Source: Eukaryota sp. GEM-RC1 (lineage: Eukaryota). Taken from it: a stretch of 64,000 nt of DNA. The stretch lies in assembly GCA_040285855.1 (NCBI GenBank), contig JAUFOQ010000004.1, positions 1,736,001 to 1,800,000 of the forward strand, given 5' to 3'. Of the stretch, positions 9,581-64,000 are shown piece after piece. The stretch's first letter is position 1. Each line of letters begins with the position of its first letter. The notes under the pieces are model-generated. The model did no database searches. It was not told where the DNA came from and worked only from the letters and a program-made list of their open reading frames with translations. The position numbers and the translations under genes are program-made.

Positions 9581-9782
9581 TACCTAGCCCACGTTCGGAA
9601 TTGTCTTAATCTGCCATTTTCAGAAAATAAAATCATTTTTATTTAAATTTCAAAACTACATGTTTATGAAAATTTTGACCCAAACCAACTGGATTTGAAA
9701 TATATCTAATGACATCTTGAACAAATTCTGTTGGATGATGTGTAGGTCCAAATAAGCAAATCAAATTAGAATGGGGAAACTC

Positions 9783-10868
9783 TAGGATTGTCCAGGTTCG
9801 GGTTTTGGTTCTAACCCGAACCTCTTATCTCAGAACCTGACTGGAACCCGAACTTGTGGGGTTAGTACCTAGGAACTTTTAGAACCTGACTATAATAAGA
9901 TACAATGAATTAGTTTTTATTTGTGTCAACATTATTGTCCAGAAGATGAAGGAGCGAATAGTGACGAGTAAGTAGAATTGTTCTGTTCATTTATATTATA
10001 TAGTTTTACATTTAAATGCAGTAGAACTTTTTGAAAACGATCAAATGACTTCCAATAGTTTCCAATACATTATGAACAATAGTATTGTATTGGCTTCCCA
10101 AACAAGTAATACAATTGTATTGACTTTCCAAAAGAACAATCCAATATTTCCAAGCTCTGCATATACCTATATACCCAGTTTGATTGTGATGATAATTGTC
10201 TTGGTTGATTTGGAGGAAGAGCAGGCCAAGGAGGAAGAGTCGACGCTAAGAGGTTCTTCGGCAGGTGCATCAATATTACTCATAGGATAGAAATGATTTT
10301 ATAATTTTACTAATTGAACAAAGTTGATCATACTAAATGAAGGAAAAAGGGGTTCGAGGTTCTAACCTGGATCCTTAGTGTTGGGAACCTAACTGGAACC
10401 TTAATTGGAACCTGGGTTCCAACCCAGGTTAGAACCGTGTGACCCACACCAATTACTACTACGAAACGTTTCTGAAACGTTAATGACTCCACGGAAACGC
10501 ATCCGAAACGTCAATAAATGTTTCCAAAACTTGATGATTACCGATAATTTCTTGAAAAGTATGTTCCGTTTTATTGTACTTTATTGGTATTTATATGAAT
10601 GTTACCAATAAAGTTGGATGCACAGTAGCAAACCGCTAAAACGAAAACACTTGCTGGCAAAACTGTACTTTGTGATCCAATTCTCTCTCTAAATTTCAAT
10701 TTCATAACATTGGGAAGTACAATCCATAACAACACGTATGACACCTGCACCTTCAACAAAGAAATGGTAAAACAAATACTAGTATATACCAGTCAACCGG
10801 AATTTTTTCGAAGAGAGAATGTTGGTGGAGAAAAATGGAGATGTAGAACCCGAACCTGGACAGTCCTA
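9783..10868. mobile_element. hAT-type MITE (GGTTC/GAACC family) with extra internal sequence
   Basis: TIRs TAGGATTGTCCAGGTTCGGG / CCCGAACCTGGACAGTCCTA; TSD GGAAACTC / GTAAACTC (1 mismatch); homologous to 48577-49322. Confidence 0.85.
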
Positions 10869-11569: not shown

Positions 11570-12560
11570 GGCCAAAAAAAAGACTCTAAAGTTACTTGTT
11601 TAAAATGTGGACACGGTCCCTTCGTTGGAAGTGCGCAGCGAATGAAACAACATCTATAAGGACCTGCTGGGCTGGCATTAAAGCATGTACCAATTCGCCC
11701 ACTGATCTGCCTCCACTCCCAAGAAAGCGACAATCTCTTGCAAAATCTACTTTTCCCGCAACATCCCCTCCCCAAAAGAAGACAGGCCCTCTAGACCAAT
11801 TGTTTGACATCAAAGGCAAGAATGATCTTGATACCGTGATTTCTGCGGTCTTTTACAGATATGGAATTCCATTTAATGTTGCCCGCTCTGCCGAGTATCA
11901 CGATATGGTACAAGCTCTAATCAATTATCGACTTCCATACGTGCCTCCATCGTATGACGAATTAGGAACAACGTTATTGGAAGCAATGTGTTTCTCGTTT
12001 CAACAGCGTCTTTCTTCTTTTTTAGCAAATATTTATGAAACCGGTTGCTCCCTTGTGTTAGATGAGTGGACTGATCCTTGTGGTCGACCACTTGTGAACT
12101 TTATAATTGTGACACCTGATGGCGCAATGTTTTACGATTGTATTAATACTTTCGGTAAATCTAAAGACGGAAAGGCTATTTTTCTAGAAATTCAAAAAGT
12201 TATTGACATAATAAACCCAGCTTACATCACTAATGTTGTAACTGACAATGCTGGGCCAATGGTCAGTGCTGGTAGACTGATTGAAAAGAAATTTCGACGA
12301 ATTGTATGGACTCGCTGCCATTCGCACTGTGTAGATCTACTTCTGGAGATCTACTACAGAAGATGGAGCCCATTAAGACAATCATTTCTGATTCTAGAAA
12401 GCTGGTACAGTTCATTAAAAACCAGTCATCAGTATATGCTATTTTCAAAAATTGTCTCCTAATAAGACATTTTTGACTCCCGCTGCTACACGATTTGCGA
12501 CAAATTACAGTCTTGTGAAAAGGTATATTTTATCCACATTTACCCACTTTTGGAGACATT
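11570..12560 (+). pseudogene. hAT transposase (BED finger plus DUF659-type catalytic region), frameshifted and truncated
   Basis: VTCLKCGH...RMKQHL, FYRYGIPFNVA, PPSYDELGTTLL, GCSLVLDEWTD, VVTDNA, WTRCHSHCVDLLLE, PAATRFATN. Confidence 0.85.
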
Positions 12561-38088: not shown

Positions 38089-38107
38089 ATTAGTGGAATA
38101 GACCTCC

Positions 38108-38306
38108 ACATTTGTAATGACAACATTTGTAATGACAACATTTGGTGATACAACATTTGTAACTACAACATTTGTAATGACAACATTTGTAACTACAGCA
38201 TTTGTAACTACAACATTTGTAACTACAGCATTTGTAATGACAGCATTTGTAACTACAACATTTGTAACTACAACATTTGTAGTGACAACATTTGTAATGA
38301 CAACAT
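38108..38306. repeat. 15-bp tandem array, ~13 units
   Basis: ACA(A/G)CATTTGTAA(TG/CT) repeated head-to-tail with no unique spacers. Confidence 0.9.
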
Positions 38307-38665
38307 GATTTTGAGAATTCCAACATCATAGCTGTGGGCATCTAATGCACATCCGATGTCAGTCGAAGTTCAACGGTTGTCCCAGCAGATGTTTGCTTTT
38401 CATTTATTTACTACAGAAACCGTTGAAGTGTCTCATTAACTACGTATAATGAGGCACACAGTGCCTCTCAACCGATTAACTGTCTATTCTAATGTTTACA
38501 TAAATCAATTTCAATGTCAATTTGTTTTATATATATTTTCATTACTAGATTGCATATTACTAGAACCATATCAAGGAGTAAATCATAAATTATACATTGG
38601 TGTTGTAGGTAGTTGAGTGGTTCAGTCAACACAGAATTTCTTCAAAAGGAATCATTTCTGTCCAC

Positions 38666-39885
38666 ATGTGTCTAAAGTTGGAACGTTCTTCCGGAAGAAC
38701 TTCTTCTGCTCTCCCAATACATATCTCAACTCAACATCTCCACTCCATTCAATCCATAGATAGGAAAACATGGTTAGAAGGGGTTGTTTGTGCTTCTTTG
38801 TTTTGCTCCTACGTGTTGTTTCCATCATCTCAATGGAAACGGAATCTCGCAGAAGATGGAGATGTTGAGACTAATCCCGGCCCACCCCATACTCAATCAT
38901 GTTTCTTCAATGTTTGTCATTGTTATAACAACAATCCCTTTACTGTTGTAACCTCTACGGACAGAGTTCTAAACATGTTCCAGTTCATACATGACAATGC
39001 TTTGGCAATTGTCCAGTATACTGATGAGCCTCAAACTCCTTATTTCGTCGTCATATACAACGGTAAAGTACAACATCACTTGCCACTCGCATATATTTTG
39101 CCAAGTGTACAGTTTACCAAAATCGAGTTTCTCAAACAAACTGACAGATCAGCTGTTAAAGAAATAATTTTTGTAGAATCTGAAGTAGTCCGTCGTATCA
39201 CTGCAGATATTGCACACATGGCCATTGGCAATCCGGAATCTGATGCATTGCCATCATCAGTATTAAAGCAGTTGTATGACTGCATTTGTTTCTTGTCTTT
39301 CAAACAAACAGCACATCAAGAAACAACTCAAATATCACTTGAATCACCTGATTTCTGTATTATTTCGTCTTCAGACAGTGAAAGCAATCAATCTGACAAT
39401 TACTGCTAATTGTCAGCAGTCGTAAATTTTCTTTTTCATGTCAACATTTTGTTAGACGTGTTTAATACGACGCTATTGAACTCAATTCATCACAAAACGT
39501 GACTTCTGCATTATGCCATTGTTTTGACAACATTACTAATGAATTTCATCTTCTACATCGTTCAGTTTCAGCATTCTTTCCTGAGTTTTTATCTGGGAAA
39601 CAGGATCCATTTAATTTTTTAGCAAAACTGTCGTACCTTCTTGATATAGAATTTCGTGCAACATTGGAACATGCTAACAGTAATGACATGGAGAAGTTTG
39701 GTGCATTGTCTCAAGACATTGAATCTGAAAAAATCCTAAAGGAACTAAAACATTCAAGTGTTGTTAACATTTTTTCTTTCAAGGTTGAAACAAAGGACAA
39801 ATTCTTACAACACATGAAAGTTTGTCTAATCTATCGATTTATCTTTTTGAAAAAAGGTTGTGTGAAGTTAACAATGAACTTTATA
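38666..39885 (+). pseudogene. Decayed ORF: leader, 2A peptide, unknown domain, USP (C19) deubiquitinase-like N-terminal part
   Basis: RNLAEDGDVETNPGP (38840-38884); Cys-box-like SNQSDNYC*LSAVVNFLFH; F.SGKQDPFNFL resembling the QQD motif; cut off by GAGCCGGCT repeats. Confidence 0.55.
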
Positions 39886-40248
39886 GATGGGAGCCGGCTC
39901 AAAATTTGATCACGGCTCAGCCGCAGGCATTAGCCAGCCGGCTGCGGCTTACAGCACATATTAGCCAGCTCAAGCCGGCTGAAGCCGGCTCAGCCTCATC
40001 GAGTTTTGTTTCGAGTATTTGGGCAGTTGCTTAAAAGTTTTATTGACTTGTTGGTTGATATATCAGTAAAATGATACAAAACCATTGTTAATGACAACTA
40101 CACCGAGTTTCAGAACGACACAATACATACACCATTGATCAGTATATTCCAGTTTTCACAGATTTTACATGTGACTTATTTTTGGGATTATCACTTATAA
40201 ACTTGACGTTGATCAGTTAGTAATTACTTGAATCTTGAAATCTTTGAA

Positions 40249-43096
40249 TGTTAATGACATGAATTCTGAATACATATTTACACCAATGTTTTATATATAT
40301 AGCAATGCACACTCATCCAACACTATATAAGTTTATTCGATAACCCATAGTCATTTGTATTAGTATCATAAACTAAAAAAAATTCCTACAATAATCTCTC
40401 AAATATTTTACATAAAACTCCACAGTAGTTTTGACATTTTCGAGTGGACATTTCTGACTCTTACTGATTCATGTTGTGGCTGATTTAGTTTACTTGGTTC
40501 AGATAGTTTAATTTAATGTAAATAAGGAAAATACAACCGTTAAGAATTCTGAAGTCAAAAAGTCATCTTATATGTTAGTCTGATGACAAATTGAAGAAAT
40601 TTGGAACCTCGCCTTGGGGTTTTTGGATAGTCTGAAGATTTGTTTGGTGTTGACAGTTATCTAGTGATTCGGAAAAGTGAGCTATCAATTTCCAGAAATG
40701 CGCCAAATGCGCCAAATGCGCGCATTTTGACGCATTTTGACGCCTTTAACGCATTTGGGATTTTGTGATCTTGTGCATTTTAACTTTGAGATTTTTTTCG
40801 AATTGTTTTTAATGTGCTTCTGTATAAGTCTCTATATACAATTACAGTGATGTTGATCTCAAAACAGTGTTTTGCAGTACCTCTTACGTTGGACAAATGT
40901 AAAGTTGTATTTTATACAATTCAATGAACATTCTTTTGATATCACAATGTGAATTGGTTTAAAATCTGTGAAGTTAGTGGGATTCAACCAAAACCTTTGA
41001 TCAAAAGTCTGTTTTAACCATTTATACGAACAATGTAAATCGATACAAAACCATAAACGGTTAATATTGTATAAAATACTGAATGAAATATAGTTTAAAG
41101 ACCATTGAATTGTATGTTCCATAAGGAAGAAGAAAGAAGAACAAGTGACAAATTAACTACATGCTTATCAGCAAGCTTTACAACAAGTTTCATATATGTT
41201 TTGATGGTACGGGAACGACTTTCTTGTTCAGAAGTATTTCTGAGTTTGAAGATTGAGTAGGACATGGAAAATTCTGGTATAGACTTTATTACAGATTTCG
41301 TTCCAGACAAGTGAATTTACATTCATTACTTCATTACTTATTGGAATTAATTCATTTTCTTCTCGTCTACGAATATACCTGGCTTTATAGCAAATGAATT
41401 CAGAAGAGAACTAACGAAGTCAATGAGTTTGGTTATACGATTGACACTCTTAAAGACTTCTTAAGTAATCACTAATGGTAACGGATGATGTTATAACTAA
41501 TAACATTAGTTAGAGTTGTTTTGATGTTTTGACACTCTTGTACTGTAGTATCTAGACTGGGATGACTGAAACATTTCATTTTCCTCTATCCACAAATGTT
41601 GGTTGTTTTACATTCTAACAGACACTCTGCTCCGTACAAGGCTCCTCTTTTGGCGCAATCCAATTTTGAGGCGGAATCCCCTGCTTGGATTCTATCTCCG
41701 TTGAGTCGATATATAAATAGCTTTTTCTATGTTGTGAAAAAACTTCCATCTCTGCTGTTGTATGTACTCTACTTCTATTCGTGTGTTATCCCTTCCCGTC
41801 CTCCGTTCCCAAAAAACCTCACCGCCGACGGTGACATTGAGTCCAATCCCGGTCCGTTGTCCAAAGACTCCCTAGAGTATCTGAATCCTGGCCAATGGAT
41901 AGATGATGACGCCCTTTCTGAATACTCAAAACACCTATTCAAAGAAGCAAACCTCGATCGGGAATGCTATGTCATTACTCCAGGTGAGATGTGGTCAGAT
42001 TTTTTCACTGATGGATACTGCCAAAATAAGATTGATGACGCCCGGGAGAGAAGCACCAGATACTTCGATGTTCCTCTCAACGATGCTATGAATACAACAG
42101 GTGGATCTGGAGGAGTTCATTGGGGTCTAATGGTAATAGACTATGCGGAAACAACGCGATATTTGTGGATCCAATTGTTGGTTCTTCTTGTCTAAGTTCT
42201 GTTGTAGATGAATTATGTAGGAAAGTAACATTGAACGTACAGAGGCTCAACATCACCAAGACACAGACTCCTAATGACTGTGGTATTTATGTTATTGGTT
42301 ATATTCAAAAATTTGTTGAACTCATTTCAAGGGATCGCATCAATCTATCTTTGATCTCTATTGAACGTGCTTTAATCCAAGTTAACAATGAACTTAATGC
42401 TGCAGATCTCCGTAAACAGATTCAAAAATTGTTTACTTATGTTGACGATCAATTGTTCATCAAATATTCCAAAATACTTGTGGAATCAACAGGTTTAATC
42501 TTTTATGACTATGTAATTGGGCCAACTGATTTATATCCGTTATTATATGGTGACCAACCCTATAATAAATATCCATTTTCGGATTTTTTGACGCAGAAAT
42601 TCTTCCAATGTAGTGAAAAGAAACACCAACAAATGCTACTTATTCCTGTCAATAGTGCAATGTGTGATCTTACTGCTGATGGTCGTCATTGGGGTTTAAT
42701 TATTCTGATCATTTCATCTCCTACAAGTCATATTTTATTCATTGATCCGACCTACGTTGAGGATGATTATGCCAGAGAATTTCCTGCTAACCAAACGCCA
42801 GTTGCACCAACTTCCTCCAATTTATTTTTAATTGTTTCACAAATTTATTCAGTGTTGTCATTCTGTGGAACCAGAAATATAGAATTTATTCCATCAAATA
42901 TCAAACATACTCTAACTGACTCTGGTTTTTGTGTTCTCGAATACATTGAACTTTTAATGAATTTACATCAATCTGTGGTCATAAGGTGGACTGATGTTAA
43001 AGAACTGCTGGGTAATACCACTATTGCTGTTCACGAGTCTCGAAGTAAAATTTTGGAACATTTTGAAACTTTTAGTCCTGTTGAGTTGTCGCATGT
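40249..43096 (+). repeat. Arm 1 of a long near-identical inverted duplication (partner 55077-58036)
   Basis: Reverse-complement match from TGTTAATGACATGAAT (40249 / 58036) through the leader, 2A and both protease domains. Confidence 0.95.
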
Positions 43097-46000
43097 GCCA
43101 AAAATGCCAGCCGTCCCTCCAAAACGTTTGTCCAGTTCAAGTGTTTCAACCGGTGCCACTCCTCAAACTAAAGTTTCTGCCATTAACTTATTGCCACCGA
43201 CTGTATCAAAACCTGTTCCTGCGTCTCTCACAGGTTTGCGTCTAGCTAGCACTAAAGCATCCACTGGTTTAAGCACCAAAAAAAGTAAACCCAAACTTGC
43301 ATCACCAAGAGGTTCACCTCTATCTAAACAAAAGGAATCCAGAACAACCAACTCCCTTGTATCAACTGGTATCACTCCTCAAACTAACATTTCTGTGACC
43401 ACCGTATCTGAACCCGTTTCTACGTCTCCAACTCCCAAACCATCAATTACAGAACAAGAACCCAATCAATCACAAAAGTTCTGTTTAATTGAGATAAAAA
43501 GTGTGATCTCAGATCCTGAACGCTTGAATCTTAAAGTCGTTCGAGTTAAACAGGAGCCAGAAGTAGACGAAGAGATTGAATCAACTTCAGAAGGTATTCC
43601 ACAAATTCAGGATACTACTTTTGAAATTCAGCGTGATCCAGATTTAGATCCAATTGTGTCAATCTCTCTTCAGTTTACCCATGATAAATTTGCAAATGAA
43701 ACTCACCTATTCACCCATAATGTTTCAGAAATTTCACTTCCTAATTGTGTAGTTCACACGTTTACAACTGAAAAATCAATGTTAACAAATTTCATTACAT
43801 TTTTAAATCTTAACAAGCCCATTTTGTTAATAAGTTATGATTGGCATTTAGATACTTTTCCGTTTTTAGTATCACGATGTAAGAAATTAGAAATTGACAT
43901 TGATTATACAATTGATGATTACATTTCTTCTCTTCCAACTTGGTTCCACAGATGGTGCAAACCAACGGAAATTGGTCCTTTTATTCCCTTGACTTGAATT
44001 CAGTATTGAAGAAGTTGTATGTCTTTAGAAGAGGTCGGTTTTTGGAAAACGTGACCACAATTATGATGGACATGAATAATCATTCAAGAACATTTGAAAG
44101 TTTTGACAATGAAAATATCTTCCTTAAGAGAATATTTCATTCTTTAGACAATCCTCTAGTGTCAGATGAAGAAATGAAGGTTAAAACTGAAGAACGTCAA
44201 AACAAAGCGCCATCTGTGAAACTAAAACCCAAGGCTGTTATGGAGATTCGATTGTTAGCAGAATTAACAAAACTTAATGAACTTTGGGAATCTAAAACTT
44301 CGAGAGACACTTCGAGAACCACTTTGTTATTGAACTCAATCAATAAGTTGTTTCTGATACAATACCTTCTCTTTGATCTTCTCGATGAAAAAAGCAAAAA
44401 TTAAGAGAACGACCACCAATGAAGACAGTGAAGAAACGATTAGATAATGTTGTATCAAAGACTAAAGCCAATTGGATGGAGTCTTGTGCTAAGAGAGCTC
44501 ATCAAGTCAGAGTTCGTGGTACTCATATGTTGAAACATTTTTTCGTTACTAAGTTTCACAACTCTCTAATTTTCGACAAGGTCAAAGAGATACTACCTCC
44601 CACTGTTAAAGAAGAAATTGAAACAGACACTGAAGTTTCAGACACTGAACAAACAGAAATTTTAAGTGAAGAGTTTGTGCCTCAACAATTAGAAGAAGAA
44701 ACTGAATTGCCTGTGACTTCAGACCCTGATTTTGGTTTGGATCGTACAATTGAATCCGAAATTTCAGAAGAAGACAGCCAAATTTTAGAAGAAGACAGTA
44801 TTGAAAATGAAACTGGTGAACCTGAACTTGACCTTTTTACTAAAATTCAAACTACCAAATTTGAATTACCAGACTGGGGAGCTTACTTTAAGTTGGGTCC
44901 AATGGGACAACTGTTGGCCATGATGTGGATTCCAAATCACCAATTTTTCAACAGTACTGATCATATTAAAACTGTGGAAAACTCGTTAAAAAACATCATT
45001 TCTAATGTTAAAACAAAACCTACAAAGAAGGAGTTCGCCCAACACTTCCTATCAAACTACATCCCTCTGTTAGAAACTGCTGGTGAAATGGTTGGTAAAG
45101 ATAGGATCGTGTTTCCAAGTGGACTATAATTGGCTAATCCTCTCGGTTACGTTGCAACCGAAATTATTGCTAATTATAAGAACAACATGAGCCAACACCT
45201 TCATGAGTATGTTTTTCAAGTCTTTAACTTGGTTACTCAAAAGAAAGAGAGAATGGAAGCTCTTACTGACAAAACCCAAAGACAAGAACTCTGTCAAAGG
45301 ATTAATGAAGTTAGAGAATTGATCATTAATGGTGAAATTTCCAAAATTAATTTTGATGACAAGCAAGTTTTTACCAATCCGGAATCTCACTTGAGTATAT
45401 TATTCTTCAATTATTTGTTTAATTATTTTGAAGGAAAGATGGAGAAAACGATCTACTATGCCGAAAAGAGTGATCCGTTATACTTTTTAAGTCATGCATT
45501 ATATTTGAACCGTCTCATTGAAGACTATTGTCCTGGTGTAAGAGCAAACAATCCTTTCCCGTTGTCTAAATCTTTAATTCCAAATCATATCAGGTTCGAT
45601 ACGCAATGGTTTCATACAATATTTCGCAGGGATATTCCCAATACTGTCAACTATAATGATGTACGGAAACTTATTTGGAATTCAGTATTTAAACCTCAGG
45701 CTATTCCAGAGTCATTATCCTATGACTTTAAATACACTTCAATTTCGTCAGACGGTTTAAGTTGTAGTTTGTTGATGATGAGGAAAGATTTACTTGATGA
45801 AAATGGAAATGCCCGTGAAAATGTTACAGCAGTTAATCTTGCTTCAAATGAGCGTTATATTGATTCCTTAAGTGAAGATGAAATTGAAGAACTGAATTTA
45901 AAATCTAAGAGAATTGTTGCTTTTGACCCCAACCAACATGATCTCATGTATTGTGCAAGTTTAAAAACTGATGAGGAAGAGACGTGTGAGAAATTTGAAG

Positions 46001-47654
46001 TTGATGAAACAAAACAATTGATAGAAAATTGGAATGACTAATGCTTGTGTTACAGAAGTTGATCTTGCTTCCAATGAACAATCTGTTGATTCCTCAGACG
46101 AGAAAGATGATTCCTCAGGTGAGAAAGAAATTGAGCCCAAGCCAGTTACCCCAACTAGAAAAAGAAAGATTGCTCCATTATCTTCTAAGAAAAGGGGAAG
46201 TTTGAAAAAAATGAAAAAACAATTAAATGATTGGAAGCAAGACACTAACCCACAACCTGTAAAGTGGAAAAGGCGTGACAAATGGAAGGTGTTCCGATAC
46301 ACTGCTGGGGAGAGAAAGGCAGATATTAACAAATCTAGATGGAAACCAAGAAAAAAATCAGCCATCACAGTTCCCAAAAAAATTGACAAAGAAACAAAAA
46401 AAGAAAAAAAGCTAAAAAGGAACGAAAGAAAAAAAGAAATTTCAAAAAACTTGAAAGAAATCGCTGTAACAAAAACATTGTCGAATTGACTGAAAGTGAA
46501 CGTTTACAGATGTACTCAACTGAGTTTGAGAAGAGTGTGTGGAATGGTCAAAAGTACTGGATTCCTACAGTTCTGATACTCCAAGAAGAAAATCATGTAA
46601 ATTGGAAGAATTTTCAAGGTACATGGTTAACAATGAAGTTTTCTGTGCATTAATGAGATCAACCACAACTGGAAAAGCAACTGCTGAAGGATTACCTAAA
46701 AAGAAAGGACCATCTAAGAAACTACCTAAGACAGGACCAACTCAACAAATACCTGCTGCAGCTGAAGGTCTTTATGAAGAGAAATTTTTTAGACGTAGAC
46801 GCCTTACCCAATATTCAAGAAAAGAACGAAGTGAACAAAACTTGGTCCACAGATTAGCTCTCCAATATGGTGATCCAGATGAAGTCGTTGTTGGTTTTGG
46901 GGATTGGAATGACACTCAATTCCGAAGAAGAAGGGGTAAGGCAAGTACAGTAAAAGGCGCTACTCTTCGAAAATTACTAAGAAAATTTGGATTTAAAGTT
47001 TTCTTAGTTGATGAATTTATGACAAGCAAATGTTGCTCTGCTTGTGCTGCTGAAAACCAGGAAGGTATCTGTTCCAATCCTGACTTTGTCAAAGTCACTG
47101 ATCCTAATTGGAAGAAGAAGTTGCAGAATGAGGAGAAGAAATTGAAAAAAGAAATTATGGAACACAATCAATTAGACAATGTTGTGAAACGTAATTTTGA
47201 TGATGAATGGACCAAACAGTTGCCATTCATGAAAGAAAGATTAAAGAGCAAAAAAGTCTCACCATGGGGCTTAGTCCAATGTGCTAAATGTCATGTCCTC
47301 TGGAATAGAGACTTCAACTCTGCTATTAACATTTTAAACATTGTAAATGGAATTATCCAAGGTCAAGGTAGACCTGCTGTCCTCGAGAGACCAAAATCTC
47401 AAACAATAACTATCGAGGATGGTGGGATTACAGATCAGGTTCCCAAGAAGATAAAGAGTGTGAGTAAGTGTCAGTTTTGTCATATGGAAGGCCATACAAC
47501 GGCAAAGTGTCCTCAAAGACCTGTGCCTCCTAAAAGTCCTCGTACATGTACGATATGTAGACAACCAGGACATGATAGAAGAAATTGCCCAAGTAAGGCC
47601 CAGAAAGATGTACCCAAAGACTCACAAGTAGAGAATGAAGAACCGGAATCCTGA
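41596..47654 (+). CDS. Fanzor1-type RNA-guided nuclease polyprotein, copy 1 (2A, 2x SENP8/Ulp1-like, PolB-exo-like, Fanzor, 2x CCHC); several frameshifts and one in-frame TAA at 45127
   Basis: DIESNPGP (41833-41856); HWGL..D..DCG; SSDGLSCS; RuvC-I IVAFDPN (D 45925); VGFGDW; RuvC-II LVDEFMTSKCCSAC (E 47013); CAKC..WNRDFNSAINI (D 47310). Junctions can be bridged by single-base indels and are collinear with copy 2. Confidence 0.85.
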
Positions 47655-48576: not shown

Positions 48577-49322
48577 TAGGACTGTCCAGGTTCGGGCTCT
48601 AACCTGGGTTCGGACCCAGGTTCCAGATTAGGTTCCCAACACTGAGGTTCCGGTTCCAGTCAGGTTCTGAACATCAAGGTTCCGGTTCCGGTTAGGTTCT
48701 GAACACTAAGGTTCCAGGTTAGAACCTCGAACCCTTTTTTCCTTCATTTAGTATGTTCAAGTTTGTTCTATTAGTAAAATTATTAAATCATATCTTTCCC
48801 CTAAGAGTAATATTGATGCACATGACGTAGAACCTCTTCACGTCGACTCTTCCCCTTCGCCTGCTCCTCCTCCGAATCCACCAAGACAATCATCATCACA
48901 ATCAAACTGGATGTATAAATATAATTGGGTTTGGTGTCTTTACTTCAGCATTTTATGGCACAATAATATTATACATATTCATTATATGCTATCAGGTTGA
49001 GCTTTGTTTCATGCAGAATTGCTCGGAAATTCTGAATATGTAGCCATCGTCACTGCAACTTTTAGACATGAAATTATTTACACCAAATGTATTCAGTTTC
49101 GTTCTGTTCTTCATAATGCTGTCAGATATGTGTCTAGTGTTTCATGGTTTTTATTTTCATATTGATTTTTGTGCCCTTCATCGATAAACTATTTTTTCAT
49201 TGTATCTTATTAAAGTCGGGTTCTAAAAGTTCCCAGGTTCTAACCCCGCAGGTTCAGGTTCCAGTCAGGTTTTGAAATAAGAGTTTTAGATCAGAACCAA
49301 AACCCGAACCTGGACAGTCCTA
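48577..49322. mobile_element. hAT-type MITE, same family as 9783-10868, opposite orientation
   Basis: Perfect TIR TAGGACTGTCCAGGTTCGGG; TSD AAGATTAG / GAGATTAG. Confidence 0.9.
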
Positions 49323-49570
49323 GAGATTAGGATAAATGTGAGTGTTTGAAAATATACATCTGAATCAGAATGCTTATTCTGAAACTTTGCCTATTTTGGA
49401 AATTTAATAAAGAAAAGGATGATCAAACACTTTGATCATCCGTTATGGGTTAATCCTATTTTAAATGTTTCAATGACTTCATTAACGTTTTTTATTTCAA
49501 AATCATCATCAACGAAAATGATATGAAAAACATACATTAGTTCAAATCGGTTCACGGATTTTAAAACATT

Positions 49571-50783: not shown

Positions 50784-50936
50784 CTGGGAATGCATTCCAA
50801 ATGCATAAGGGCATAACCCTTCACATTTTCATGATCTCATATAGAGCAAAACTCACAGTTTGAACAAATGTCTAAATTATTAGACAAATATCCTCATTCG
50901 CAAAGTCTTTTAAGACGAGCTAACTTCATAGATTCA
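50784..50936 (-). ncRNA. Putative Fanzor omegaRNA scaffold, copy 2
   Basis: Same conserved blocks as copy 1 with longer inserts, e.g. hairpin TGTCTAA/TTAGACA at 50869-50886; ends ...TTCCCAG. Confidence 0.6.
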
Positions 50937-53900
50937 AGATTCCTGATCTTTCTGGTTTACGAGGGAGTCCTTGGGTACATCTTTCTTAGGCTTATTTGGA
51001 CAAGTTGCTCTGTTATGCCCAGGTTGAAAACATATACCACACTTTTTAGGACCTCTGACAGTTGTTGGAGGACGTTTTGCCTTACCCTTACCCTTACTCA
51101 CAGTCTTTTTCTTAGGAATCTGATCTGTATTCCCGCCATCCACGACAGGTGTTGTTTGAGATTTTGGTCTCTCGAGGATGGCAGGTCTACCTTGACCTTG
51201 AATGGTTCCATTTACAATATTGTAAATATTGATAGCAGAATTGAAGTCTCTATTCCAGAAGACATGACATTTAGCACATTCAACTAAGCCCCATGGTGAG
51301 ACTTTGTTGTTCTTCAATCTCTCTTTCGATAATGGCAACTGTTTGGTCCATTCATCATCAAAGTTACGCTCCACAATATTGTCTAATTGATTTTGTTCCA
51401 TAATTTCCTTTTTTAATTCTTTCTCTTCCTTATGTAACTTCTTCTTCCAATGAGGATCAGTGACTTTTATCCTTTCAGGATTGGAACAGATACCTTCGTC
51501 GTTTCTGGAAACACACGCAGAGCAACATTTGCGGGTCTTAAATTCATCAACTAGGAACACTTTAAATCCAAATTTTCTCAATAATTTCCGAATTGAAGCA
51601 CCTTTTTTCAAGTCGATGCTTTACCTCTTCTTCGACGAAAAGCAGTGTCGTTCCAGTCTCCATACCCAACAACGACTTCATCTGGGTTACCAAACTGGAG
51701 AGAAAATCTGTGAAGCATGTGTTTTTCACTTCGCTCCTTTCTTGAATATTGTGTTAGACGATTCCGTCTAAAACACTTTTCTTCATAAATTCCTTCAGTA
51801 TTTCTTTGATCAGTAGTGGGTGATCGTAGTAAAGAACAGGCAATTTCTTTACCAAGAACAAAAGCAGAATACTGAGTCAATTCACAAGATTTACTACCTG
51901 GCGAGTTAGAGCCCCATTGATCTAAAATTTGTTGCCCATTTATGTCAATGCGTCTGCCATCTGGACTGTGAATAAATTGGGTAGAATATTGTTGTAACCG
52001 TTCGGATTCAGATAAACGGTAGAGATTCTATCGTCTTATTTTCTTCTCCAGCTTCCTCTTCTTTCTATTAGCTCTTTTTCTTTCCTTCCTTGTTTTTTTC
52101 TTTTCCATGGAGACTTTTTTAATATCGGCATTGCGCTCCCCAGCAGTGTATCTGAATACTTTCCAATTATCACGATTTTTCAACTTGACAGTTGTTGGTT
52201 TGTCAATAGTTGGTGCGTCTTTCCAATCCTTCAATTCCTTTTTCAATTTTTTCAAACTTCCTTTTTTCTTTGATGACTTTGGAGAAATCTTTCTTCTTCT
52301 GAGTTTGGTTGATGTATCGAAACCTTCGATTTCCTTTTCCTCCTTAGATTTTAAAGAAGCACAATACATCAAATCATGCTGATTAGGATCAATAGCAACA
52401 ATTCTTTTGGATTTCAAATTTAAGTTTTGAATTTCCGTGGAACTCAAAGAATCAATGTACCTGTCGGTACTTGTGTAGTCGACTGCTTTCAATTTCTTAT
52501 GAGGATTTCCTCTCCCATCAAGCAGATCTTTCCGCATCATCATTAAACTACAGCTAACTCCATCTGTAGAAATAGAACTGTATTTGAAGTCATGAGACAA
52601 TGACTTTGGAAGACACTTTGGTTTCAAAACTGAGTGCCAAATATCTTTTCGAACTTCATCAATGTTACCTTTAATTTCTGATGCATAAACTTCTTTAAAC
52701 CATGAAGTATCCAACCTAATATGATTAGGAATCAATGATTTTGTTAGAGGAAAAGGATTATTGGCAGTAACACCAGTACAAGAGTCTTCAACAAGACGTT
52801 TCAAATACACTGCATGACTTAAGAATTTCAAAGGATCCACTTTTTCAGCATAATAGATTGTTTTTTCCATTTTACCTTCAAAAAAAGTAAACAAATAGTT
52901 AAAAAATAGTAAACTCAGTCTAGAATTGGGATCAGGAAACACTTCAACGTCTTGAAAATTAATTTTTCAAATTTCCCCATTAATGATCAACTGTCTGACT
53001 TCATTAAGCTTTGTACACAACTCTTGTCGTTTATTCTTATCAGTAAGCTTGTTAAGTCTATCTTTTTCAGGGTAACCAAATTAAATACTTGAAAAACATA
53101 TTCGTGAAAGTGTTCACTCATGTTAGTCTTGTAATTCGTTATAATTTCAGTAGCCATGTAATGCAATATACGAGATAAACGATGACTACTGGGAAACACA
53201 ATCCTATCAAGTCCAACAGATTCAGCAGCTAGTTCTAAACGAGGAATGTAATGAAACAGGAAGTGTTGAGCAAGCTGATTTTGAGTTGAGGCCTCATTTG
53301 TTTCAGAAATTATGTTTGTTAACGATTCTTGTACAGTCTTAATATGATTCTGGTTGTTTACAAGTTTTTCCTCCCTAATCGTCATCATAAATAACACTTG
53401 TTCCATTGATTTCAACGTAAAAAAATTCTTCCAGTCTGGCAATTCAATTTTATTAATTTGATTTTTAGTCCAAAGGTCAGGTTTAGGTTCACCACTCGCA
53501 TCTTCAATATTTTCTAATTTAACGGGAGGAGCAGTAGCATCGATAGACTCTGAATGTACATCTGTTTCTTCTTCAGTTGACTCATCTGTATCAGAATTCA
53601 TTTTTTCCTTAACAGTTACATTTGGAACAGTAGCAGGCAGTAACTTCTGAATGTAACCTAAAATACCAGAATGGTGAAAATTATGAACAAAAAAATGTTT
53701 CAAAAAGAGACTACTACGGACTCTTACTTGATGAGCTCTCTTAACAGGAGATTCAATCACTCTAACCTTACAACATTGTCTAGTCGTTTCTTAACCACTT
53801 TCATTGGTGACTTTGACCGTAATGTTTGCTTTTTGGGATCCAATAGGTCAGCCAACAAGTACTCAATCAGAGGTAATTGTTGAATTGAGTTCATCAACAA

Positions 53901-56690
53901 TAGCGGTCTTGTCGATTCCTTGGCCCAAAGTTCATTTACTTTCTCCAAATTTCTTATAAATTTCTTTTTAATCTTGTCGGCCTTCACTTTGGGATTGTCT
54001 GGAACTAAAACATTAATACTGTCAATTATGCCATGCAAGTTTTGAACATTATTGACCAATTGAACTTCATCAGGATCAGAGTCATGATTAAGTTCTTCCA
54101 AGCGTTTGACAGTTTCATTTTCAGAAAAATTATTCATTTCAAGGAAAATTTGAACAACATTTTCCAAAAAACGGCCACCAGTAAAGACATAAAAATTCTT
54201 CAATACAGCATTCAAATCGAGACTAAAAAACGGACCAAAAGTTGTTTCCTTACACCGTTTATTGAACCAAAAGGAAATGTAGGGTTTAAATTCTGGAAAA
54301 GTAAACGTTGTATTGATTTTGAGGACTTGACAACGTGATACAAGAAAGGGAAATGTATCTAAATGAAAATCATAACTCACAAACAATCGTGGACAATGTT
54401 GAGTAATGAAGGAAATGAAGTTTTTAAGCATACTGGATTCACTGTTTGAAATATGTAAAGTACACAAATCCAAGTTTGTAGTATCAAAATTGCCATGAAA
54501 AAATATATTTTTTTCATTAAACTCATTGTGATCAATGATCTGGATGGAAATTGATACAATCAGATCAACAGAAGAATCACGTTTAACTTCTAATTGATTT
54601 TCAAATTCACCTTCAAAAGTTTCAATGTCATCATCATCTTGAACAAGTTGAACATTTCTACCATTAATTTTTTTCTTTTTTGGCAAAATCACTTTGAACA
54701 TGGATTAAACAAAAGTTGGCATATTATTCCATAATAAAGGGGATTTAACAAAGTCTTGAATTTTTATTTCTTGTTGTTCGATAGGCTCTGGATTTCTTCT
54801 TGAATTGGCGATGGATACGACATAATGGAGGCCTTAATTTTGGGTGGTAATTCAGATGGTGGTAATTCAGATGATTCCAATGTGGACATACGGCGGTGAG
54901 TCTTTCGTATGGGAGTGGCACCAGTTGATACAAGGGAACTGGTAGTTCTAAATTTATTTCGTTTAATTAAAGGTGAACCTCGTGGTGATGGAATATCAGA
55001 AATTTTGGCCTTACTTTTTTTAGTGCTTAAACCAGTAGATGTTTTAGACGTTTACCTGAGATTGGTGACGCAGAAACATGCGACAACTCAACAGGACTAA
55101 AAGTTTCAAAATGTTCCAAAATTTTACTTCCAGACTCATGAACATCAATAGTGGTGCTACACAGCAGTTCTTTAACATCAGTCCACCTTATGACCACAGA
55201 TTGATCTAAATTCATTAAAAGTTCAATGTATTCGAGAACACAAAAACCAGAGTCAGTTAGAGTATGTTTGATATTTGATGGAATAAACCGTATATCTCTG
55301 ATTTCAAGGACTGATGAAACTGAATAAATTTGTGACACAATTGAAAATAAATTGGAGGAAGTTGGTGCAACTGGCGTTTGGTTAGCAGGAAATTCTCTGG
55401 CATAATCATCCTCAATGTAAGTCGGATCAATGAATAAAATATGACTTGTATGAGATGAAATGATCAGAATAATTAAACCCCAATGACGACCATCAGCAGT
55501 AAGATCACATATTGCACTATTGTCAGGAACAAGTAGCATTTGTTGGTGTTTCTTTTGACTACATTGAAAGAATTTCTGTGTCAAAAAATATGAAAATGGA
55601 TATTAATCATAGAGTTGGTCACCATATAATAACGGATATAAATCATTTGGCCTAATTACATAGTCATAAAAGATTAAACCTTTTGATACCACAAGTATTT
55701 TGGAATATTTGATGAACAATTGATCGTCAACATAAGTAAACAATTTCTGAATCTGTTTACGGAGATCTGCAGCATTAAGTTCATTGTTAACTTGGATTAA
55801 AGCACGTTCAATAGAGATCAAAGATAGATTGATGCGATCCCTTGAAATGAGTTCAACAAATTTTTGAATATAACCAATAACATAAATACCACAGTCATTA
55901 GGAGTCTGTGTCTTGGTGATGTTGAGCCTCTGTACGTTCAATGTTACTTTCCTACATAATTCATCTACAACAGAACTTAGACAAGAAGAACCAACAATTG
56001 GATCCACAAATATCGCGTTGTTTCCGCATAGTCTATTACCATTAGACCCCAATGAACTCCTCCAGATCCACCTGTTGTATTCATAGCATCGTTGAGAGGA
56101 ACAGCGAAGTATCTGGTGCTTCTCTCCCGGGCGTCATCAATCTTATTTTGGCAGTATCCATCAGTGAAAAAATCTGACCACATCTCACCTGGAGTAATGA
56201 CATAGCATTCCCAATCGAGGTTTGCTTCTTTGAATAGGTGTTTTGAGTATTCAGAAAGGGCGTCATCATCTATCCATTGGCCAGGATTCAGATACTCTAG
56301 GGAGTCTTTGGACAACGGACCGGGATTGGACTCAATGTCACCGTCGGCGGCGAGGTTTTTTGGGAACGGAGGACGGGAAGGGATAACACACGAATAGAAG
56401 TAGAGTACATACAACAGCAGAGATGGAAGTTTTTTCACAACATAGAAAAAGCTATTTATATATCGACTCAACGGAGATAGAATCCAAGCAGGGGATTCCG
56501 CCTCGTATTGAGTCAAATACAAACAACAAGATGGCAGCATGACATCAACGGGAGAGGAGAACAAGCTATCCATATATCGACTCAATGGAGATAGAATCCA
56601 AGCAGGGGATTCCGCCTCAAAATTGGATTGCGCCAAAAGAGGAGCCTTGTACGGAGCAGAGTGTCTGTTAGAATGTAAAACAACCAACAT
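50934..56690 (-). CDS. Fanzor1-type polyprotein, copy 2 (same architecture, one CCHC); frameshifts and an in-frame TAA at 55603
   Basis: DIESNPGP (within 56316-56360); protease and exo-like domains; STDGVSCS; IVAIDPN; VGYGDW; LVDEFKTRKCCSAC; CAKC..WNRDFNSAINI; CGICFQPGHNRATC. Confidence 0.85.
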
Positions 56691-58036
56691 TTGTGGATAG
56701 AGGAAAATGAAATGTTTCAGTCATCCCAGTCTAGATACTACAGTACAAGAGTGTCAAAACATCAAAACAACTCTAACTAATGTTATTAGTTATAACATCA
56801 TCCGTTACCATTAGTGATTACTTAAGAAGTCTTTAAGAGTGTCAATCGTATAACCAAACTCATTGACTTCGTTAGTTCTCTTCTGAATTCATTTGCTATA
56901 AAGCCAGGTATATTCGTAGACGAGAAGAAAATGAATTAATTCCAATAAGTAATGAAGTAATGAATGTAAATTCACTTGTCTGGAACGAAATCTGTAATAA
57001 AGTCTATACCAGAATTTTCCATGTCCTACTCAATCTTCAAACTCAGAAATACTTCTGAACAAGAAAGTCGTTCCCGTACCATCAAAACATATATGAAACT
57101 TGTTGTAAAGCTTGCTGATAAGCATGTAGTTAATTTGTCACTTGTTCTTCTTTCTTCTTCCTTATGGAACATACAATTCAATGGTCTTTAAACTATATTT
57201 CATTCAGTATTTTATACAATATTAACCGTTTATGGTTTTGTATCGATTTACATTGTTCGTATAAATGGTTAAAACAGACTTTTGATCAAAGGTTTTGGTT
57301 GAATCCCACTAACTTCACAGATTTTAAACCAATTCACATTGTGATATCAAAAGAATGTTCATTGAATTGTATAAAATACAACTTTACATTTGTCCAACGT
57401 AAGAGGTACTGCAAAACACTGTTTTGAGATCAACATCACTGTAATTGTATATAGAGACTTATACAGAAGCACATTAAAAACAATTCGAAAAAAATCTCAA
57501 AGTTAAAATGCACAAGATCACAAAATCCCAAATGCGTTAAAGGCGTCAAATGCGTCAAAATGCGCGCATTTGGCGCATTTGGCGCATTTCTGGAAATTGA
57601 TAGCTCACTTTTCCGAATCACTAGATAACTGTCAACACCAAACAAATCTTCAGACTATCCAAAAACCCCAAGGCGAGGTTCCAAATTTCTTCAATTTGTC
57701 ATCAGACTAACATATAAGATGACTTTTTGACTTCAGAATTCTTAACGGTTGTATTTTCCTTATTTACATTAAATTAAACTATCTGAACCAAGTAAACTAA
57801 ATCAGCCACAACATGAATCAGTAAGAGTCAGAAATGTCCACTCGAAAATGTCAAAACTACTGTGGAGTTTTATGTAAAATATTTGAGAGATTATTGTAGG
57901 AATTTTTTTTAGTTTATGATACTAATACAAATGACTATGGGTTATCGAATAAACTTATATAGTGTTGGATGAGTGTGCATTGCTATATATATAAAACATT
58001 GGTGTAAATATGTATTCAGAATTCATGTCATTAACA
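55077..58036 (-). repeat. Arm 2 of the inverted duplication (partner 40249-43096)
   Basis: Direct reverse-complement match; carries an extra 114-bp unit in the leader. Confidence 0.95.
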
Positions 58037-58289
58037 ATCGTATTCATTACATTTTTCAATACTTTTGAATTAGCTGGATCTGAACTATAAGTATTCGATG
58101 AGTGTTACAAAAGTCATACACTCCGATGAAAACCCTTAACACAGAAGACAGAAATAATGAATTAATGACGTGTATAACTAAACAGTGACAGAGTTAGCAT
58201 TGATTTTATCATTTTCAACAACTTTTTATATTTTTCAAAAATACGGAAACATTCAGACAGATAACTCACTCAGTCAAATTAATTAGGAT

Positions 58290-60441: not shown

Positions 60442-61470
60442 TTACCTCTTCTCTTCTTTCGAGCTCCTAGTTCTCTTTGCTACAGGTGTCTTAACTTTGG
60501 AAGACGTCTTAGGAGTACTCTTACTACCGGAGGTACGTTTAAGCTTAGTGTTGTTATTACTAGACCTGTTTCTATTGTTACGAAATAAATCTAAATTGTC
60601 TAATTTTACAAAGTCACTATACGCTTTGGTGTTCTTGATGTCCTTGATGGGAACTGACGAAGTATCACCACCAAACCAAAGTACAGTGCAGAATTCACCA
60701 TCGGGTGTATCAAACCTATCTAGGATCTTAACCACGATGTGTTCTTCAGAATCCCCAGAAGCAATTGCTCTGTGGAGATCATGATCAGCAGGTAGATCTG
60801 ATTGAAAGATCTTACATTGATGAATGCTAGTCTTACTAACATATCCAGTGATCAGATTCTTTAATGAAACAGAAGATTTTGAATCAACTGAGACAACTAG
60901 AAAAGGTCCAGTGTAGTTTCCATGGAGCTTACTAGTTTTGGCGACCTTTAACACAAGATCTCCAATCTTAAATGATTGACTAGTGTTAAACTTCTTCTTA
61001 GGCTTGAGTACTGATTGACGATCCTCTGCCTCTTCTCTTTTTTTTCGTTAAACGTTCTAGTTTCATTTTAATGTCGTCAATAAACGAAACATTCTTTGTT
61101 GATTTCTCAACAGCATCTAGTAAACCACTAGGATCTGCACCAGGACTTATGTCACTACCAAACATCAGTTCGTAAGGAGTATGCCCAGTTATTGAACTCT
61201 TTGTTGCGTTGATCTGCAACTGTACAGTTGGAATGTACGTTGACCAATTGTCATAATCATTGAAGTCCACAAGGAGACGACGTAGGCTTTGCAGAACGTC
61301 TCTGTGACGTCGTTCCACCAGTCCATTACTCTGGGAGAAATGAGGAATCGAACGACTTACTTCAATCGCCAGTAGGTTACATATTGCCTCGAAAATAGCA
61401 TTGGCAAACTCCGTACCATTATCACTATGGATACAAAACGGTATTCCAAAGATAGCAATCATTATTGGAA
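60442..61470 (-). pseudogene. Ty3/gypsy integrase C-terminal part with GPY/F and chromo-like domain
   Basis: FGIP..IHSDNGTEF, SQSNGLVERRHR, TGHTPYELMFG, KLHGNYTGPF, EEHIVVKILD...VLWFG. Confidence 0.85.
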
Positions 61471-63968
61471 CTAAAACGACGACTAAAAGATTGACTACGA
61501 CTGTCACCTGATCTACGTTTGTTGGACTTCTTATCACTGTCAGATTGAGGTTTTGATCTACAATCAGTGGAGTAATGGCCCATTTTTCCACAGTTAAAAC
61601 ATTTAACCGTAGACTTAACATCTCCAGGTGTACCATGAGAAGATTGAGAATGGGGCTTGTTTGCGGTATTTGGTCGATTTCTTCTATTTCTAGAAGGAAA
61701 ACGACTGGAAGGAGTGGATAAGGACTTCACAGCTGTGGAACGCTTGTAGGTAGTCCAGATCGATCTAACTTCTTGGAAGAATTGAGGTAGCTTATCATCC
61801 TCAGTTTTGAGACGATGATCCCATCTAAGAACAAGTTCATTCAAAGCAATAATTCCTTTGTCAGGATTCAGTGTTTCTAACATCAACTCGGCTACTGTGG
61901 AAGCAGGGACCTTTGTTCGGACAGTTTCATCACTCGACGTAGCTATTATCGCCATGGAACATTTGAGAACGCTAATTACGCCACGGAGGTATCGGTCAAA
62001 GCACTCAGCAGGGTCTTTGGAGCTACCCAATCTTATTTCTTTAATTGCATCAATGGCTGTTGTAGTTGATGAGTATTGACTCTTGTTAATCAATAAACGC
62101 CAGATGTTTTGTTCAAGTACCTGACTACTGTTGTTATTACCAATCAGATCTAACATTTTCCAATCATTCAAAGTCGTTTGATCTATGAAATGACTAATGC
62201 CAGCTGGATCAATCTCACACAATGCTGTCCTAGCAAGGTCGAATTTGTTCAAAGGAGTACCAATCCAGAGGTCATAATCGAAACGTTCAGTTTGTTTTCT
62301 GACATGAATGGCCCAATGAAAGAAGTCATGAATAAACTTCACAACCTCATAACGAGTGTCGTTTTTCAAGAACGGCTCTCTGTCTTTTTTCTTCTTGATC
62401 TTCTTGGGAGGAGTCACACCAGATGAGAGAATAACAGAATCATGAAGGACATTGTCAGGACGTTCATCTTCAGAGGATTGACTAAGATCGATGTGATTTT
62501 CAATCGATGGAGACAAATCAGGAAACTTGTTTGATTGTCTATCTCTTTCTGCTTTGGTTTTGTTGGCTTTAGCAATCAACTCGTTTCTATGTCGAATTTT
62601 CGGTTCTTCGAGTTCTTTTTTCGACATGACTGTTGATTCTTGGTTCAAATCACGAGTGAAGTTCTCGGTCACACGGTAAACGTTTTCATGTTCTTCACTG
62701 GCAACAAACCGATCAACGTCTCCAAATTCTCCATCAAACTTTCTAGTTGAGAGAATATCACGTGAACCATCAGTGAAGCGGTCAACAGATTCTGGACGGA
62801 AAGGTTCACCAGGAACGTGAGCAGAAAGGCGAGCAGTTTGACGTAGCTCTTCAGGCTTGGGAAGAAGTGTACCAACTTCTCGTAAAGCACCATGAGCAAC
62901 AGGAAGGACCTTTTGAGATCCGCCAATGCCACTAAACTGTTGGACAACCACAGAACCTTCATCAGGAACAGCTAAGGTCGTGTTTGATGCTTCAAAGGTT
63001 GACTGTGGAAGGTTTTCATATCTATGACCAACGGGAAGGTGTCTAGAACTAACAGCAACGTTGTGATACGTCTTGACTTGATTGCTCAAGCTTTGACAAT
63101 ACCACGCTGAGTAAGCATACGTAACGTATCTACCATCGGCATCGAAACTAGGTTCCAATGGTTCAATCAAGATACCATGACGAGGATCCCATGAGTAATC
63201 CGAGGGATAACGATACGTATCCCCAGCATCTCCATCATACAAATCACCCAGAAAGCGTTCAATAACTTGAGGGGAAATACCTGGAGGAACGTTCCTCAAC
63301 AGATAGTGCCGTCTTTTAGGCATACGGTTGCGGATGACAGGATGCCAAGGAGCGAACTTCGCCAAGTGCCACATGTCGTAATCAGAGATACCAACGCTGT
63401 TGTCTTGTGGACTTACCCAGGGTATGAGTCTATTTGGGATAGCATCCTTATGGAAGTGCTGTTCCTCAATAGACCCAACTAGCTCTTCGACTTTGTTGCC
63501 TCGATCTTCTGGAGAGAGACTCATCTTACGAGCTAGAAGTTCCTTTTCAACAAGAAGCTTCTGTTCTGCTTCGAGTCTTCTAGACTGCTCTTTGGCGAGA
63601 GATTCCTGTAACTTGCGAATCTCTTCAACCACTTCAGTTGACCTCTTTTGAGGAACTGGAACAACATCGGGAATGCTTTCTTTATTAAAACTATTTCTAC
63701 GAGGAAGAATAGGGAGAGGAGACGCTGTTACAACAACATCATGACTCTCGGAATGCGGAGTACTGCTACTGTCAGCATCGCTTACTCTATACTTCTCTAA
63801 CAAGCTTGGGATACGGTCTGAAATTACAGAGGGAGTATCCAAACCCACTTCGCCATCCTTGCGGGAAGACGAAGTCCTTCCATCCTCAGATGGGCATCCA
63901 CCTTCAGGTTGAACATCTACAACTCTACGAGAAGTAGATTCACCACCCTCAGGTGAGATTTCCGTCAC
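61425..63968 (-). CDS. Gag-like ORF of the LTR retrotransposon (may begin beyond the window edge)
   Basis: 847-aa ORF with the CCHC knuckle CFNCGKMGHYSTDC, running into integrase sequence. Confidence 0.75.
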   Translation of the reverse strand: MTEISPEGGESTSRRVVDVQPEGGCPSEDGRTSSSRKDGEVGLDTPSVISDRIPSLLEKYRVSDADSSSTPHSESHDVVVTASPLPILPRRNSFNKESIPDVVPVPQKRSTEVVEEIRKLQESLAKEQSRRLEAEQKLLVEKELLARKMSLSPEDRGNKVEELVGSIEEQHFHKDAIPNRLIPWVSPQDNSVGISDYDMWHLAKFAPWHPVIRNRMPKRRHYLLRNVPPGISPQVIERFLGDLYDGDAGDTYRYPSDYSWDPRHGILIEPLEPSFDADGRYVTYAYSAWYCQSLSNQVKTYHNVAVSSRHLPVGHRYENLPQSTFEASNTTLAVPDEGSVVVQQFSGIGGSQKVLPVAHGALREVGTLLPKPEELRQTARLSAHVPGEPFRPESVDRFTDGSRDILSTRKFDGEFGDVDRFVASEEHENVYRVTENFTRDLNQESTVMSKKELEEPKIRHRNELIAKANKTKAERDRQSNKFPDLSPSIENHIDLSQSSEDERPDNVLHDSVILSSGVTPPKKIKKKKDREPFLKNDTRYEVVKFIHDFFHWAIHVRKQTERFDYDLWIGTPLNKFDLARTALCEIDPAGISHFIDQTTLNDWKMLDLIGNNNSSQVLEQNIWRLLINKSQYSSTTTAIDAIKEIRLGSSKDPAECFDRYLRGVISVLKCSMAIIATSSDETVRTKVPASTVAELMLETLNPDKGIIALNELVLRWDHRLKTEDDKLPQFFQEVRSIWTTYKRSTAVKSLSTPSSRFPSRNRRNRPNTANKPHSQSSHGTPGDVKSTVKCFNCGKMGHYSTDCRSKPQSDSDKKSNKRRSGDSRSQSFSRRFSSNNDCYLWNTVLYP

Positions 63969-64000
63969 CTCCTTGTGGGAAGTGGGGCTTCTATCCTCAG

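Follow-up and report, generated by a model that had tools for sequence, protein, structure and literature searches.

Two broken copies of a tandem ubiquitin-like protease cassette, probably the N-terminal part of a mobile Fanzor1-encoding element

The locus raises the question of what two adjacent protease-like domains, the second with Ser where the catalytic Cys is expected, are doing together and to what they are attached. The window (the whole stretch of DNA that was analysed, 64,000 nt) holds the pair twice, in copy A on the + strand and in an inverted copy B on the - strand. On balance, we favour the view that both copies are broken examples of a cassette that forms the N-terminal part of an element which encodes Fanzor1, has many copies and is likely mobile. 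The order along the frame is the same in both: 2A motif, domain 1 (D1), domain 2 (D2), linker, exonuclease-like domain, Fanzor1 and zinc knuckles, spanning 1,943 codons in copy A and 1,804 in copy B. The features are as follows (window coordinates).

41668..41728, + strand: 5' tandem monomer of copy A, part of a 114-bp unit
41827..41856, + strand: predicted 2A/StopGo-like motif, DGDIESNPGP
41857..42437, + strand: D1, assigned to the CE-clan/C48 proteases
42438..43070, + strand: D2, modelled CE fold, predicted pseudo-protease
43071..43480, + strand: Ser/Thr/Pro/Lys-rich linker of copy A
43481..44400, + strand: exonuclease-like domain (3'-5', PolB type; DEDD motifs degenerate) followed by a helical segment
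44419..47400, + strand: Fanzor1 of copy A
45919-45936, + strand: RuvC-I DPNQ of the copy A Fanzor1
46893-46907, + strand: GDW of the copy A Fanzor1
47004-47018, + strand: DEF of the copy A Fanzor1, then the C4 finger
47301-47318, + strand: NRD of the copy A Fanzor1
47469..47654, + strand: two CCHC zinc knuckles and stop of copy A
55076..56345, - strand: 2A-D1-D2 cassette of copy B
50934..55075, - strand: body of copy B (B-type linker, exonuclease-like domain, Fanzor1, one knuckle)

A sequence-only reading of this DNA had recognised the two domains by a series of short motifs. We find every one of them where it had been placed, with Ser at the Cys position of D2 in both copies. Copy B (- strand, 56291-55246) has the same motifs, but VPDNS replaces IPVNS. 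Those of copy A, with the residues at catalytic positions, are these.

41881, + strand: D1 LNPGQWIDD (Trp loop 41881-41907)
42070, + strand: D1 VPLND
42109, + strand: D1 GGVHWGL
42162, + strand: D1 FVDP
42258, + strand: D1 KTQTPNDCG
42118-42120, 42168-42170, 42264-42266 and 42279-42281, + strand: D1 His, Asp, Gln(-5) and Cys
42642, + strand: D2 IPVNS
42681, + strand: D2 GRHWGL
42738, + strand: D2 FIDP
42903, + strand: D2 KHTLTDSG
42687-42689 and 42744-42746, + strand: D2 His and Asp, kept
42906-42908 and 42921-42923, + strand: D2 Gln to His and Cys to Ser

Conservation within the family points to catalysis by D1. Eleven paralogs at 26-88% identity share invariant P, H, W, D, D, P, Q, C, G and Y, and the His-Asp-Cys triad, in that order and with Trp after His, is intact in all eight other D1 proteins. 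Surveying 57 proteins gave 48 instances of the Cys motif, many of them near-copies (34 with Cys, one with Phe and 13 with Ser), and the Cys forms span about ten lineages. The oxyanion Gln of family C48 canonically lies six residues before the Cys. Here, Gln stands at -5 in all 35 non-Ser motifs, and position -6 takes eight different residues; in the alignment, no gap separates the D1 Gln from its counterpart, the second Gln of SENP8/NopD, whereas in Ulp1 Gln occupies -7/-6 and position -5 is Pro. Because it is kept in 35/35 non-Ser domains of the family, Gln(-5) is likely the working oxyanion residue. The spacing had been called atypical and activity uncertain on that account; the Gln is indeed at -5, yet its invariance largely removes the doubt. 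We predict, from sequence, that intact D1 is active.

Profile and structure comparisons agree on the fold. All eight intact paralogs scanned pass the Pfam C48 (PF02902) cut-off of 20.7, at 24.6-28.5 bits; the window ORFs alone, at 14.6 and 13.5 bits, fall below it. The Atlas agrees on C48 for intact D1. A model of D1 (P0010; pTM 0.70, built from 11 sequences) matched XopD/NopD at Z 15.1-16.1 and SENP8 at 14.7-15.0, with SENP1/2/5/7 and Ulp1 at about 11-13; Foldseek ranked NopD first and then SENP8, and the sequence profile gave E 1.6e-10 for XopD/NopD, 2.9e-7 for SENP8 and 9.5e-7 for Ulp1. The model of D2 (window 42432-43082; pTM 0.86), searched against 48,161 chains, returned XopD (Z 15.1), NopD (14.8) and SENP8 (13.7), with 173 residues of 5jp1 aligned at rmsd 3.1 and Z 15.1. 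The match is beyond chance, since 29 chains reach Z>=8, all of them CE-clan, and the next row has Z 4.9. The C48 fold that had been proposed is thus supported for both domains, which the models place in the SENP8/XopD/NopD neighbourhood of the CE clan. The bacterial CE proteases XopD and NopD (5jp1, 5jp3, 8oi3, 8rqi) are the top or tied-top matches of D1 and D2 in fold and sequence, at 13-22% identity, but they are secreted effectors whereas the present domains belong to a eukaryotic chromosomal element; the common fold tells neither origin nor substrate.

Whether D1 is a deneddylase, to which the sequence-only reading likened it, is a different matter. D1 would then be a true SENP8/NEDP1-type enzyme that switches off cullin-RING ligases or removes NEDD8, and D2 would be a NEDD8 trap. 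SENP8 is the best eukaryotic match by both profile and fold, and D1 resembles SENP8/NEDP1 (1xt9, 2bkr, 2bkq) in its CE fold (Z 13.7-15.0), the order His-Asp-Cys, the Trp after His, the Gln aligned at -5 and the VR-3 loop. Judging by the titles of 2g4d and 5aek, Cys-to-Ser mutants of SENP1/2 bind SUMO in solved complexes, which would suit a trap. Three variable regions are reported to set substrate choice in the CE clan, the long loop before His being VR-3 of NEDP1 (PMC4961225). Both domains have such a loop (by eye, 15 residues from Pro to His in D1 and 14 in D2, against 13 in SENP8 and 7 in Ulp1), but that of NopD is equally long at 15, so the loop is not diagnostic. The D1 model has no VR-1 hairpin, only a low-confidence helix instead; 14 residues separate the 2A Pro from the first Trp of D1, and D2 begins at the Trp position. 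XopD and NopD score as well as SENP8 or better, the Ulp1 profile score is nearly that of SENP8, and XopD is described as cleaving Ub and SUMO while discriminating against NEDD8 (PMC4961225). Identity to SENP8/NEDP1 is 18-19%, D1 lacks their Gln at -6 and, unlike them, it belongs to a likely mobile polyprotein with a second domain that is predicted to be dead. With VR-3 common to NopD, the VR-1 hairpin missing and XopD/NopD tied, the name deneddylase is not earned: the C48/CE fold and the long loop stand, NEDD8 specificity of D1 is doubtful, and the complete reading, trap included, is unlikely.

We prefer a broader role, in which D1 would probably cleave conjugates of ubiquitin, SUMO or NEDD8 behind the Gly-Gly. 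Its substrate would be either the Fanzor protein itself, in cis, or chromatin where Fanzor has its target, and removal of the tag would lead to escape from degradation or silencing, or steer the repair of breaks. StopGo would, with similar probability, release a variable 5' peptide, and the protein would begin at the protease.

In neither window copy do the reading frames encode an intact D1 enzyme. D1 of copy A is split over two frames, with the part up to His in ORF 41566-42195 and Asp and Cys in ORF 42039-43997. The break, which the sequence-only reading had overlooked, is a 1-nt loss in an A-run near 42152, where paralogs read through as VIDCAENNAIFVDP, and the site is open in all eight non-window D1 proteins that span it. 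Copy B carries the same break; because the copies are ~99% identical there, we count it as one event. A Cys-to-Tyr change three codons past the strand after His accompanies it and is absent from the eight intact copies. P0001, the NCBI model of copy A, skips the break by means of a called intron, at the cost of the Asp. The earlier pairing of an active protease with a pseudo-protease is supported, as is its setting in a mobile element, but the word active is wrong for both window copies because of this frameshift. Programmed frameshifting at 42152 was considered and rejected: we see by eye no canonical slippery heptamer, and eight paralogs are open.

There are further lesions. Copy A has frame breaks near 43979 and 44389 in the exonuclease-like region and, in Fanzor1, a stop at 45127 and breaks near 46030, 46470 and 46530; copy B has an in-frame TAA at ~55605, within D2; and 10-nt deletions are among the lesions. 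Five of the seven breaks of copy A are open in copy B, the breaks peculiar to copy B are open in copy A, and a junction inside Fanzor (46460-46490) is broken in both. No full-length protein of the element was seen among the database proteins; the gene models P0007, P0038 and P0042 span 2A to the Fanzor N-terminus and may contain called introns, as database gene models may use false ones. Complementary breaks in A and B, the open D1 site in the other D1 proteins and these three models argue for a single frame.

Could the breaks instead be long-read homopolymer errors in copies that are in fact intact? The D1 break and others sit in short runs, six B-type database proteins terminate in the same way behind a T-run, and the organism to which the homologs are assigned was, according to its paper, sequenced by nanopore assembly with Illumina polishing. 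Against this stand the in-frame stops at 45127 (A) and 55605 (B), which were made by substitution, the 10-nt deletions, and the Cys-to-Tyr change that travels with the D1 break. We regard such errors as an improbable explanation of the whole; given the in-frame stops and the 10-nt deletions, the window copies are most likely truly dead, although the single-base breaks could include assembly errors. We note that the six B-type proteins (P0006, P0007, P0009, P0014, P0015 and P0016) have their common T-run frameshift at the Fanzor N-terminus and that window copy B, P0038 and P0039 read through this site; the A-type P0001, P0003, P0017 and P0019 have another frameshift in common. An inherited defect, an assembly error and recoding are the candidates for these shared ends.

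The rest of the frame identifies the element. The 2A motif, DIESNPGP, fits D(V/I)ExNPGP; the protease cassette begins directly after it, and such a motif is kept in front of diverged proteases. Crossovers that join protease cassettes to bodies of A- or B-type fall in a zone of the linker. The exonuclease-like domain matches PF03104 at 27.8 bits, and alignment with the DEDD-intact paralog P0057 shows its motifs to be degenerate. In P0057 itself a protease precedes a PolB-type exonuclease whose DIE, FD and YxxxD motifs are intact, and the model lacks a polymerase domain. Fanzor1 is matched by SpuFz1 (8gkh) at E 8.4e-10 and 2.6e-9 and by PF07282 at 29.7 bits, and has the RuvC D, the Gly and Glu near the TS-C4 finger, and the RD. 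It thus has the D...TS-C4...RD motif of Fanzor1 (SpuFz1 8gkh; PMC3627910), with matching REC and RuvC regions, and differs by ~860 extra N-terminal codons (proteases and exonuclease-like domain) and the C-terminal CCHC knuckles. Some 40 nt are conserved beyond the stop; checked as a guide omega RNA, they gave only a weak two-sequence fold and no Rfam match. We recognised no transposase or reverse transcriptase in the ORFs of the element and found no TIR or TSD; its likely mobility therefore rests on copy number and mixing.

A long frame headed by a 2A motif might also suggest that D1 matures a polyprotein and frees Fanzor from its precursor, as viral CE proteases do; I7L, pS273R and giant-virus Ulp1-like proteins do appear in the fold lists, at lower scores. 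In nine paralogs searched for GG sites only, however, Gly-Gly after the 2A occurs just in the loop of D1 and in one B-type FTGGR, and this FTGGR of the exonuclease region reads RRGR in A. Moreover, very different protease types are swapped while the body stays. Processing of the polyprotein, which had been offered as one role of the pair, is thus a weak proposal with linkers free of Gly-Gly in nine proteins, and we hold it to be quite improbable.

The origin of D2 was addressed with a careful tree of 17 rows. D2 forms one clade (support 100/100) on a stem of 1.85 changes per column, and on this evidence lost Cys and Gln once. Tandem in the sense of a duplication of D1 is not borne out, since D2 as a duplicate of the domain in front of it is rejected (AU p=0.002). 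P0030 and P0028 may be the nearest active relatives of D2, a grouping with support of only 71/73 that involves long branches. P0030 has a lone protease, joined to the same linker type (A), and the placing of D1 ahead of an older protease would fit this arrangement. We lean slightly towards D2 being that older protease, which would have lost catalysis once D1 stood in front and stays as it lies inside the frame; a role in binding modifiers is somewhat less likely. Between copies A and B, D2 has 28 non-synonymous and 10 synonymous changes, and this comparison of two dead copies (pN/pS 0.76, p=0.28 vs neutral) is itself neutral on function in living ones.

With both the Cys and the oxyanion-candidate Gln lost (Ser, and His at -5, in all 13 D2 motifs), D2 is predicted to be a pseudo-protease. 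That it is instead an active Ser-His-Asp hydrolase with a changed nucleophile is very improbable: His, Asp and Ser are kept throughout the 13 motifs and a confident fold has survived the long stem, but the Gln is gone as well, Cys-to-Ser is the usual inactivating change in SENPs (SENP mutant entries are among the fold matches), and the exonuclease that shares its frame has degenerated too. The scheme that we favour overall, with some confidence, is that StopGo would trim the leader, D1 would strip ubiquitin-like tags, and D2 would be a retained dead fold, a relic more likely than a trap.

The alignment of the two copies hints at how they arose. An inverted near-identical duplication (window 40246-43096 vs 55076-58039) covers a 1.4 kb flank and the protease cassette, which is 97% identical over 1429 nt. 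Identity is ~99% at the D1 break and over the 1.4 kb upstream and 89-95% in D2; the bodies behind the cassettes are ~45-88% identical per 300-column block and belong to different subfamilies, the identity fading into D2, and similarity stops at 47694 on the copy A side. This gradient would fit a recent event in which the 5' end was copied, or converted, onto another body. The 114-bp monomer occurs once in copy A, twice in copy B (56444-56618) and up to seven times in paralogs, and other family copies are preceded by monomers unrelated to it. Such variable 5' tandem repeats recall LINE promoters.

The family as a whole is a mosaic. Longer proteins gave 6 matches among 1946 candidates, a full HMMER scan 15 (13 family members and two repeat-driven artefacts, P0023 and P0031, removed before all counts), and a profile search 29 among 7987 scored candidates. 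All named members bear the label Eukaryota sp. GEM-RC1, an organism assigned to the free-living metamonads in the paper that describes it. No related loci were found in viral contigs and no match in plasmids; 2 of 80 metagenome stretches matched, both generic Ulp-like genes by their ORFs and not the Fanzor element; and, as weak evidence, no long Fanzor homolog appeared at E<=1e-5 among 2010 candidates. There are about ten diverged protease types, with substrate loops of 9 to 20 residues by eye; the types seen on a Fanzor body are some of these, as many gene models are fragments. Recombination mixes two bodies with several protease types and at least seven 5' tandem monomers: three protease types are found behind the 114-bp monomer, and D1-D2 occurs on both bodies. 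P0026 and P0048 have two Cys-bearing protease domains each.

This variety suggests a bolder possibility, which we put forward tentatively: a transposase-free Fanzor element of a new kind, whose StopGo-led polyprotein would take part in an arms race against host ubiquitin/SUMO/NEDD8 defence, equipped with polymorphic ubiquitin-like proteases. The set would comprise about ten diverged types, single, double-active or active with a dead trap, swapped by recombination at the 2A motif and linker.

The presence of Ulp1-like domains in some transposons, which the sequence-only reading had noted, agrees with the literature: Ulp1/OTU domains are reported in Ginger1, Mutator and Helitron elements (PMC2836005; HELIANO preprint 10.1101/2024.02.08.579435), and anti-silencing Vandal VANC genes carry such domains, of unknown function (PMC13317346). 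Ginger1, Mutator/Kaonashi/VANC and Helitron-like elements likewise have C48 in a mobile-element protein, with a proposed role in transposition or anti-silencing. Unlike in Ginger1, Mutator and Helitron, the partner here is Fanzor1 and not a DDE or RepHel transposase, the protease is N-terminal behind a 2A, and one or two domains of many exchangeable types are present. The 2A of L1Tc, Ingi, CR1 and L2, as described in PMC3708506, is similar in having DxExNPGP at the N-terminus of a long ORF, but the GEM-RC1 element has no APE or reverse transcriptase. Literature listings, and term searches in the main texts of PMC10530073, PMC3627910, PMC10711439, PMC10432273 and PMC13565253, turned up no fusion of a protease with Fanzor; term searches of the 2A literature gave no passage on a 2A-protease-Fanzor arrangement. 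Within the literature searched, then, Ulp1 domains in transposons are known and their fusion to Fanzor1 appears to be new. A 2026 review still calls the role of the Ulp1 domain in transposons unknown (PMC13317346). One genome here offers a natural panel of some ten small diverged protease types and a dead version, several of them attached to one and the same Fanzor body, and with such a panel the choice of substrate and counter-defence can be tested directly. If our reading is true, the range of Fanzor1 architectures would come to include a large protein with several enzymes, and the RNA-guided nucleases of eukaryotes may have to be shielded from the ubiquitin system.

Other features of the window deserve mention. 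Another 2A-like motif, DVETNPGP (38861), stands at the head of a cargo that is unrelated and broken (38609-39909, + strand). At 39350-39906 within it, a USP-like Cys box and QD box were suspected by eye, a reading that drew no support from Pfam, PDB or the Atlas; the cargo closes with the C-terminal helix of a different protease type (39798-39848; 88% over 17 aa to P0024). A MULE transposase with a FAR1 domain lies at 7842-9497 (- strand), and its flank, 9777-10400, recurs inverted at 48684-49328 in the spacer between copies A and B. At 60442-63998 (- strand), a long ORF with a CCHC knuckle beside an integrase-like ORF is LTR-element-like. The window also holds a DUF659 ORF (11590-12462, + strand) and a 15-bp tandem array of ~16 units (38093-38336).
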